DNA of 64,000 bases. It comes from an uncultured Anaerolineales bacterium (GTDB lineage: Bacteria > Planctomycetota > Phycisphaerae > FEN-1346). Positions 23,037 to 24,090 of this stretch are shown here, in pieces. The stretch covers positions 76,453 to 140,452 of the forward strand of contig CAYWVR010000002.1 of the NCBI GenBank assembly GCA_964461715.1, read 5' to 3'. How positions within the stretch are numbered: the stretch's first letter is position 1; the number at the start of each line of letters is the position of its first letter. The position numbers were made by a program, and so were the translations under genes. Under the pieces are notes generated by a model. The model was not told the origin of the DNA, did not search any database, and was given only the letters and a program-made list of their open reading frames with translations.

Positions 23037-23160
23037 GGTCTGGCGTCTCCTGTCGGTCCCAAACTGCCGAATGCGTGGCAGCGGCGTTCTTGACAGGGGA
23101 CGGACCGCCGTCTACAATAAAGTAGAGCGGACGTCGGGCTTCGCCCGGCGGACCGTCCCC

Positions 23161-23215
23161 GGTGGATCAGCATCTCCCGGCAAGGTGATCTGCTGATCCA
23201 CCTTTTCTATTTATT
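23161..23215 (+). terminator. perfect 12-bp-arm inverted repeat (GGTGGATCAGCA…TGCTGATCCACC) followed by a T-rich tract: intrinsic-terminator-like or palindromic operator
   Basis: Arms at 23161-23172 and 23191-23202 are exact reverse complements with an 18-nt loop. It is followed by ttttctatttatt, inside a ~1-kb non-coding, GC-poorer divergent intergenic region. Confidence 0.4.
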
Positions 23216-24090
23216 CCGTCACGGGTGGCACAGCGAGCCCGCCCGCTACTGCTGACTCATCGCACGGTCGAGACGAAGAGCTTGAGCTACCCCTCGTGCG
23301 GAACCTGAACACTCAGACGCCTATTTCTCTGCGGGCCCCCCCACAGCGAACACCCCTCGTGCGTTTGCCGCGGTGCGCCGATAACTCGGCCGTCATTCGT
23401 CCACCCCCCTTGCTGCAGCGGCACCCTCCGCATGCACACGGCCATCGCGATAGGCTGACGCTACAGGGAGACTCTAACACACGAACCCCTCCAAGTCAAA
23501 CCGGTGCACAAAAAAAACGTCGCCGAAGCGCTCTCCAAGCGCCGGCTGAACACAGTCCGTACGAGCCGGGCCCCGGGCAGGGCCCGCCAGACCGCCTTGT
23601 GGCCGGCATCATCTTTGTCTATATCCCGCCCCTTCGCCGAAACTCGCAGACCCCCCCCTCTTGCCAGGCGCGCCCTTCGCCGGCACCATCGAGATGGCCC
23701 CTCACGGACATCAACCACGCCCGTTCGGGCCGGCGTCGGGGCTCCGGAAAAGGGTCAAGGGGGGCGCCCGGGCGGGTCGACAATCCCTGCGGAGCCTTGC
23801 GCGGGGGACGAGCCCCCTCCCCTTCCCGCCGGGCCCGCGTCCGTCTCAAACGATTGTGAACTAAGGACTAAGCGTGAATCTGGGGGGCACAAGAGGTTTG
23901 CTTTCGCGTCGATGCGCGGTATAGTAACAGGTACGAGATTCGTCCCGGGGGAGTATCCAGGATCGCGACGGCATCGTCCGTCCACGGCTTTCCGTGTCGG
24001 CCGACAAGGTCGGTTCGGGGGCGCAAACACGTCCATTGGCCCCTGGCGCGGGGCAGCACAACGACAAGGCCGGGAAGCAGGGGGTTTACC

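Follow-up and report, generated by a model that had tools for sequence, protein, structure and literature searches.

The region at positions 23037-24090 (1054 bp) of the stretch of DNA analysed here (64,000 nucleotides of contig CAYWVR010000002.1, hereafter the window, with positions counted from its first letter) separates the gene of a priming sugar transferase, on the minus strand, from a set of export genes on the plus strand. Our analysis points to a small RNA (sRNA) gene in this region: a hairpin followed by a T-tract (H2) is very probably the terminator of a transcript of about 90 nt with its own promoter, and we give a probability of roughly 0.6 to the explanation as a whole, in which this sRNA would act as a countertranscript-type repressor of the priming transferase. 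An earlier, sequence-only reading of the window had described the hairpin and proposed that it might end a small RNA, attenuate the export operon or serve as an operator for both exopolysaccharide (EPS) operons. The first of these proposals gains support from a near-consensus promoter (P1) lying 42 nt upstream of the hairpin, which that reading had overlooked, and from the covariation of the unit in 23 related loci. The features of the predicted gene are the following.

23090-23118, plus strand: P1, sigma-70-type promoter (TTGACA at 23090-23095, a 17-nt spacer, TACAAT at 23113-23118)
23124-23212, plus strand: predicted sRNA, about 85-90 nt, its 5' end placed from the -10 box and its 3' end from the T-tract
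23127-23156, plus strand: H1, 5' hairpin of the sRNA, present in the minimum free energy (MFE) structure and differing in sequence between lineages
23161-23215, plus strand: H2, palindrome with its T-tract, read as the intrinsic terminator of the predicted sRNA

The arms of H2, GGTGGATCAGCA (23161-23172) and TGCTGATCCACC (23191-23202), pair perfectly around an 18-nt loop, and the T-tract TTTTCTATTTATT (23203-23215) lies directly 3' of them, as described in the earlier reading. The hairpin folds with -27.3 kcal/mol (z = -6.0 against dinucleotide shuffles, with none of 200 shuffles equal to it). It has the sequence hallmarks of an intrinsic terminator, and resembles a generic Rho-independent one in its stable GC-rich stem of 12-13 bp (-27 kcal/mol) and in the U-rich tract straight after it; a simple terminator scanner overlooked it solely because the loop limit of that scanner is 8 nt. 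It differs from the generic type in its unusually large loop (18-27 nt) and in a conserved apical mini-stem, a small CCU/AGG stem recovered by RNAalifold that exposes a GGCCAA-type loop, and these apical features suggest that H2 is more than a terminator; its loop might, for instance, make the initial contact in antisense pairing. In the apical region most homologues have CUGG, UUGG or CUGA, whereas the window has CCCGGCAA in its loop (23173-23190). The YUNR U-turn motif is typical of antisense-RNA recognition loops, and the three tetranucleotides of the homologues fit it.

The window has four loci with a perfect inverted repeat (arms of 12 bp or more, loops of 3-30 nt), against about 0.7 expected from first-order Markov simulations, so a hairpin of the H2 type is unusual there, though not unique. 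At 19262-19296 a perfect hairpin with 15-bp arms (GACCCGGCGGGTGGA...TCCACCCGCCGGGTC) and a T-tract on the minus strand stands 72 nt past the stop of a 407-aa minus-strand gene (19368-20591) and looks like a textbook terminator; its stem and H2 have GGGTGGATC in common. Such a clear terminator behind a gene indicates that the organism uses canonical intrinsic terminators elsewhere.

P1 fits 11 of the 12 consensus positions. The pattern TTGAC-N17-19-TANAAT occurs a single time in the window, at P1, where 0.01 occurrences would be expected, and both boxes are kept with a 17- or 18-nt spacing in all 23 homologous loci. The transcript predicted to run from about 23124 to the T-tract folds as two hairpins (-48 kcal/mol, z = -5.3). 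From its 5' end it comprises H1, whose sequence varies, a short linker rich in C (CGUCCC) and H2, the conserved hairpin of the terminator; the same succession of H1, linker, H2 and U-tail was found in all nine homologues that were folded one by one. There is no ATG or start context in the transcript, and the region lacks periodicity in the G+C content of third codon positions (GC3). At the level of sequence, the unit thus has what an independent sRNA gene would be expected to have, namely a promoter of its own, a covarying structure (H2) and no coding capacity.

The loci compared were fetched with the transferase protein (51-72% identity) from metagenome-assembled genomes labelled Planctomycetota/Phycisphaerae (L008-L017) and from metagenomes (L088-L106). 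Within the 1-kb region the conserved portion is limited to 23084-23229; the remainder, in which neither blastn nor nhmmer detected conservation, is not kept because the neighbouring gene differs between lineages. Inspected by eye, the relatives show a promoter, two successive hairpins and a T-tract just 5' of the transferase gene and pointing away from it. A covariance model (R1), built from nine sequences and with only the H2 pairs annotated, gave 23 matches at E ≤ 2e-4 (best 7e-30) and one weak match (L101, E = 0.02). The match in the window is a single copy (23090-23224, 100.7 bits, E = 7e-23), and no match was obtained in 832 kb of non-orthologous Bac_transf loci. Every match adjoins an orthologous transferase gene, on the opposite strand, with 32-72 nt between the P1 -35 box and the transferase ATG in the 21 loci measured.

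Across the family, H2 is paired in 93.7% of alignment cells (31-48% in slid controls), and 9 of its 13 pairs show changes on both sides, a count that none of 500 shuffles matched. On the plus strand G·U combinations number 18 and A·C combinations 5, and all 23 members have a tail rich in T (5-10 of 12) after the stem; the G·U excess and the universal tail fix the strand and support the terminator function. The promoter-hairpin-hairpin-T-tract unit is therefore kept with covariation in the 23 loci, and its anatomy, conservation, covariation, strand bias and synteny can be read directly from them. Given the promoter, the terminator, the covariation and the fixed genomic partner, we regard the sRNA as a candidate new RNA family of 23 members. 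Transferase orthologues with no detectable sRNA upstream are present in L008, L014, L104 and L105 (51-68% identity), so some lineages have either lost the element or never acquired it.

The mechanism that we propose involves the transferase leader, whose features, including a second promoter (P2) and a set of anti-Shine-Dalgarno motifs that the sequence-only reading does not mention, are listed here.

23471-23499, minus strand: P2, sigma-70-type promoter convergent with P1 (TTGACT-17-TAGAGT with an upstream TG)
23289-23300 and 23352-23363, minus strand: two exact copies of CGCACGAGGGGT in the P2 transcript, a direct repeat
23146-23163, plus strand: segment C, the 3' arm of H1 plus the C-rich linker (CGGCGGACCGTCCCCGGT); its minus-strand reading is motif M, a proposed 'anti-anti-Shine-Dalgarno'
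23093-23110, minus strand: anti-M, which is the P1 spacer, a candidate anti-Shine-Dalgarno element on the transferase strand
23064-23081, minus strand: small hairpin CTGCC...GGCAG between P1 and the transferase Shine-Dalgarno, seen in the sequence
23034-23051, minus strand: transferase Shine-Dalgarno (SD) AGGAGA (TCTCCT on the plus strand, 23046-23051) and ATG (23036-23034)
22380-23036, minus strand: priming polyprenyl-phosphate sugar-phosphate transferase, 218 aa (Pfam Bac_transf, E = 2.9e-60; NCBIfam)

A counterpart of P2, mostly TTGACA-N17-TATACT and often with an extended -10 box (TGn), was found in 17 of 21 loci; it is on the transferase strand, 200-370 nt past the 3' end of the sRNA. Visual inspection of the 32-72 nt that separate P1 from the transferase ATG revealed nothing like a sigma-70 promoter, only the small hairpin and the SD, which makes P2 the best candidate for the transferase promoter; a transcript from P2 would then run antisense through the sRNA gene. 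P2 is thus probably the promoter of a transferase leader of about 430 nt that overlaps the sRNA gene in antisense. In the relatives a hairpin of other sequence is found at the position equivalent to 23064-23081.

The coordinates 23093-23110 and 23146-23163 form an inverted repeat of 18 nt with 89% complementarity, and the complementarity between segment C and the P1 spacer is significant in 14 of the 22 distinct family members. Along the transferase strand M (e.g. GGGACGGUGCGCC) comes first and anti-M some 50 nt after it; then follow the P1 -35 box as its reverse complement, the small hairpin, a third motif copy (M') that overlaps the SD at -12 to -3, and the AUG. From lineage to lineage all three copies change in step (GGGACGATG, GGGCGGTG, GGAGACGACGCG). 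We examined the resulting helices on an mRNA-sense alignment (A4) of 13 sequences, which represents a 13-member subclade that includes the window. The M:anti-M helix is 91.6% paired (28-47% when slid) and the anti-M:M' helix, in the SD region, 92.0% (34-55% when slid), with five pairs changed on both sides in each. In the subclade two covarying helices exclude each other, and one of them covers the SD.

Nine relatives have perfect runs of 8-12 nt between anti-M and the translation initiation region (TIR), at -12 to -3, and where the leader anti-M and the sRNA diverge it is anti-M that the SD matches. In the L017 group the SD match in cis is perfect over 9-10 nt, as opposed to an A·C mismatch between SD and sRNA, and in L095 the match in cis reaches 12 nt. 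As the SD follows anti-M rather than the sRNA, selection appears to act on the leader. In partition-function calculations, masking the part of the leader complementary to the sRNA lowered the predicted mean SD accessibility from 0.35 to 0.15 in the subclade, whereas in distant members lacking the motifs the same masking had no effect (0.44 to 0.45).

We propose that the sRNA would be transcribed on the plus strand from P1 and end at the H2 terminator, and that the P2 transcript would reach the sRNA gene as a long antisense transferase leader. The sRNA could then pair with the complementary stretch of the leader that contains M, perhaps first through the H2 apical loop. With its 5' end between M and anti-M, the sRNA would mask M and free anti-M, leaving the SD closed; in the subclade that includes the window, the freed anti-M would pair with the SD region and block transferase translation. 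Transcription from the convergent promoters P1 and P2 might add transcriptional interference, and overall EPS synthesis would be repressed at its first committed step. That both RNAs are made, that they meet, and that the effect is in this direction are inferred. We put the antisense/anti-SD mechanism itself at a little under even odds. A stronger version, in which the locus is a compact RNA toggle where one piece of DNA is both the P1 spacer and, on the other strand, the leader anti-SD, with P1/P2 interference as a further element, we consider tentative and distinctly less probable.

Several observations weigh against this proposal, and the mechanism is weakest in the window itself, where the anti-M:SD match is weak (6 nt, GGACCG/CGGUCC at -23) and is located 5' of the AGGAGA SD. 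Eight distant members keep P1, H1 and H2 without the motif triplet, which therefore cannot be the core function of the family. In 6 of the 13 subclade leaders the SD is predicted to be closed without masking, and the 11 G·U and 6 A·C counted for M:anti-M on the mRNA-sense strand favour that strand only weakly. H1 was not recovered as an RNAalifold consensus structure across the homologues, because the region aligns poorly. The covariation counts come from about 20 related lineages and so include shared ancestry, and the start site and 3' end of the sRNA, as well as read-through from P2, are deduced from sequence features. Finally, seven relatives have an intrinsic terminator about 170-200 nt after P2 and about 100 nt before the sRNA 3' end, so that much of the P2 transcription may never reach the overlap.

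L017 5659-5688, L013 5534-5566, L092 3433-3464, and also L094, L090, L088 and L095, plus strand in locus orientation: post-P2 terminator

The stems of these terminators share a partly conserved start (CCGGGGGC), and the window has no clear equivalent. They could possibly delimit a second small RNA or act as a conditional attenuator in the transferase leader. Relatives' P2 RNAs carry one to four G-rich motifs (GAGGGGT / AAGGGGGG) at the place equivalent to the direct repeat of the window, where three of the seven GAGGGGT copies of the window fall in the P2 region, the third at 23485-23491 (minus strand) in the P2 spacer. Small open reading frames (ORFs) behind these SD-like motifs were considered and rejected, as their frames are not conserved and the substitutions, judged by eye, are mostly non-synonymous. 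Folded as a whole, the window's P2 transcript shows no unusual degree of structure (z = +0.23), and no consensus structure could be derived from the poor MAFFT alignment of the P2 RNAs. At 23503-23545 on the minus strand, directly before the P2 -35 box, a hairpin (GCCGGCGCU...AGCGCUUCGGC) of unexceptional fold (z = -1.0) is followed after 4 nt by U8; it could be the terminator of a minus-strand transcript from the side of the export operon, or its T-run could be an UP element for P2.

Among the other explanations, the one that survives best, though we think it improbable, is a free-standing trans-acting sRNA, which would use limited pairing by the CGUCCC linker or the GGCCAA loop and would need no antisense overlap; its targets, an equally doubtful assignment, would be the G-rich SD regions of the transferase mRNA or of other EPS mRNAs. 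Watson-Crick runs between linker or segment C and the transferase SD reach 9 nt in L013 and L088 and 8 nt in L095 and L092, the P2 transcripts of seven relatives may stop before the sRNA gene, and the distant members retain the sRNA without the leader motifs, all of which this explanation would accommodate. However, the SD fits the leader anti-M better than the sRNA where the two differ (the L017 group and L095), and sRNA:TIR runs are barely longer in cognate than in non-cognate pairs (6.5 vs 5.8 nt). The comparison was made with contiguous-run counts in place of RNAduplex energies, which are uninformative for such GC-rich sequences (cognate -24.9, non-cognate -23.7 kcal/mol). Very little of the sRNA is predicted to be single-stranded, and its strict linkage to one gene at every locus is more typical of cis-encoded regulators.

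It is still less likely that there is no functional sRNA and that the conserved unit is a cis-acting structured transferase leader on the minus strand, an SD-sequestering switch next to which the plus-strand features would be incidental. The M:anti-M and anti-M:SD helices do covary on the mRNA-sense strand, the M:anti-M stem is part of the MFE structure of the window's leader, and P2 is conserved upstream. Against this, TTGAC-N17/18-TAnAAT stands in 23 of 23 members, including the eight that lack the switch motifs, and a match of this promoter grade would be expected 0.01 times per window. The ratio of G·U to A·C in H2 (18 to 5 on the plus strand) means that H2 would be damaged when read on the minus strand, and the T-rich tail is likewise a plus-strand feature.

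The idea that the element attenuates the export operon is very unlikely, and depends on an arrangement found in the window alone, where the export operon begins 875 nt downstream on the same strand. P1 would then drive the Poly_export gene, with H2 as a regulated terminator, for instance through processive antitermination; some P1 read-through remains conceivable, and the gene next beyond the terminator is co-oriented with the sRNA in 8 of 12 loci. That gene, however, varies from lineage to lineage, and the transferase gene is the sole constant neighbour of the sRNA.

This window only: export operon, co-oriented with the sRNA
L017, L096, L091 and L092: exosortase, co-oriented
L010: PMI, co-oriented
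L011: radical SAM, co-oriented
L009: 3-keto-disaccharide hydrolase, co-oriented
L099: RNase R, convergent with the sRNA
L013: GluRS, convergent
L088: calpain-like protease, convergent
L012: protein without a Pfam hit, convergent

No relative has export genes downstream of the element, and in L009, L012 and L104 they follow the transferase gene instead (directly so in L104), while the next gene is convergent in the remaining 4 of 12 loci. In addition, the opposing promoter P2 stands between the element and the next gene, and the region has neither an ops/JUMPstart 8-mer nor a match to a riboswitch or leader family. As the export operon lies downstream in this window only, we reject the export-attenuator reading, and the suggestion that the element controls both EPS operons also falls, the tie being to the sugar-transferase gene only.

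Least likely of all is that the palindrome is an operator for a dimeric regulator, or that the triplicated motif marks protein-binding sites. The subclade does retain the arm sequence GGTGGATCAGC fairly well, and three copies of one 9-14-bp motif near two promoters could in principle be operators. But a gap of 18-27 nt separates the H2 arms, what is kept is their complementarity and not their sequence (9 of 13 pairs with double changes), the 18-to-5 asymmetry of G·U over A·C would be meaningless for double-stranded DNA, and the triplet changes in concert while its pairing, G·U included, persists. We reject the operator reading on arm spacing, compensatory changes and strand asymmetry.

The countertranscript-type repressor that we favour has its closest parallels in plasmids. 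Countertranscript RNAs (ctRNAs) of plasmid replication control have been reviewed in general (PMC5415839), and RNAII of pMV158 inhibits repB translation (PMC4485353). Like RNAII of pMV158, RNAI of pT181 and CopA of R1, the element described here is predicted to be a small stem-loop RNA (about 50-150 nt in this class) with an intrinsic terminator, and its strong promoter would lie within the leader of the target mRNA, on the other strand. Binding of a plasmid ctRNA refolds the leader or occludes the ribosome-binding site and thereby blocks expression, which is what we propose here. The element differs in being chromosomal, in a member of the Planctomycetota, and in standing beside an EPS priming transferase rather than a replication gene; its anti-SD lies within the spacer of the antisense promoter, and its overlap with the target transcript is deduced from the position of P2. 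The Rfam ctRNA families have no sequence or covariance-model similarity to it.

The prgQ/prgX system of Enterococcus pCF10, with its Anti-Q RNA, is a convergent-promoter switch with an antisense RNA. The likeness lies in a pair of strong promoters that converge across a few hundred nt, with transcriptional interference and a small antisense RNA that would jointly determine an on/off state. No components are homologous, and in many relatives the P1-P2 overlap would need read-through of the P2-proximal terminator. sRNAs of the RsaE/RoxS type have C-rich motifs that mask G-rich SD sequences, and the exposed CGUCCC is similarly complementary to G-rich ribosome-binding sites (GGGACG); here, however, there is a single C-rich stretch and not several, the cognate pairing is not clearly better than the non-cognate, and there is no sequence relationship or Rfam match. 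We rejected a CsrB/RsmZ-type sponge, the sRNA having only two hairpins and an H2 loop that reads CAAGGU in most members and contains GGA in just three; the G-rich repeats of the separate P2 RNA are GAGGGGU and not the ANGGA of that type. An RfaH/ops (JUMPstart) leader was likewise rejected, the 8-mer GGCGGTAG being absent from 23037-24090; its two copies in the window, at 29186 and 53033, are no more than expected by chance.

An Rfam/Infernal scan, which the sequence-only reading had suggested as a check, yielded no known family, ctRNAs, riboswitches, c-di-GMP-I/II, JUMPstart and EAR included. With Rfam 15 nothing was found at E ≤ 10 in 22900-24300 except two chance snoRNA-like matches elsewhere in the stretch, nothing at E ≤ 1 on the sRNA or the P2 RNA of nine relatives, and at gathering score only a tRNA in the whole window. 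A full-text literature search found no paper on the sRNA element. The sRNA would thus be a new RNA family of a known kind, the cis-encoded antisense sRNA, with the unusual twist of an anti-SD in the antisense promoter.

The sRNA is a rare regulatory RNA candidate in the Planctomycetota, and the product of its partner gene commits the lipid carrier to EPS synthesis in a PEP-CTERM/exosortase locus. If the countertranscript reading is true, it would be a case of chromosomal, non-plasmid countertranscript control coupled to an SD-sequestering leader, and an entry point to the regulation of matrix production in uncultured Phycisphaerae. Should the toggle exist, it would be a commit/do-not-commit switch at the first step of PEP-CTERM-linked EPS synthesis in Phycisphaerae-like planctomycetes and an RNA toggle of a sort undescribed before, to which the second, structured, G-rich and terminator-ended P2 RNA would add a further layer. 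P1 and P2 both resemble the sigma-70 consensus, so that the module, from P2 through the leader and P1/sRNA to the transferase start, is suited to a heterologous reporter.

The flanking genes are as the sequence-only reading had given them, a sugar transferase on the minus strand and export genes on the plus strand. The start context ATGCCnGAnCC (MPEP) is kept in all transferase orthologues. The plus-strand export set, starting at 24091, comprises Poly_export, a chain-length determinant and the system ATPase and is of the XrtA/PEP-CTERM type, and PEP-CTERM proteins are encoded downstream of the transferase gene; the PEP-CTERM/EpsH (exosortase) system has been described (PMC1569441). About 165 nt upstream of the Poly_export start a weak promoter-like TTGCTT-N16-TATAGT (23898-23925, plus strand), noticed by eye and below the scanner threshold, could be a promoter of the export operon's own. 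No sigma-54 promoter match was seen by eye in the region, and a tRNA/tmRNA scan of 23037-24090 gave nothing.

The claim that 23037-24090 contains no credible ORF holds. Two ORFs, 23296-23859 and 23504-24094, which are called as genes on some Logan contigs, were rejected: neither has a Pfam match, the highest GC3 in the region is 0.76 (0.85-0.96 in the flanking genes), and a C-run length polymorphism at 23651, between metagenomic strains that are 99.8-100% identical, shifts both frames. The lack of GC3 periodicity and of Pfam matches, together with this frame-shifting polymorphism, indicates that the region is non-coding. The description of the region as GC-poor stands in so far as its GC content is lower, although the difference is modest (64.8% against about 70% in the window). 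It is doubtful that the other intergenic regions are all below 250 bp, as had been stated, since a crude GC3-based gene call leaves 2294-3101 and 17383-18346 uncovered, two stretches of 800-960 nt without a high-GC3 ORF. A promoter-like TTGACT-16-TATACT lies at 2933-2960 and a small terminator-like hairpin at 2788-2801.

At 37452-37544 (plus strand) ARAGORN reports a 93-nt 'tRNA-???' with a 2-nt anticodon, which gets no support from the Rfam tRNA model at gathering score; the call may be spurious, or the tRNA may be degenerate or contain an intron. The variation among the near-identical Logan contigs (otherwise 99.8-100% identical) includes the 1-nt length change in the C8 run at 23644-23651 and four SNPs clustered within 23 nt (23237-23259) just past the sRNA terminator, with none inside the sRNA.

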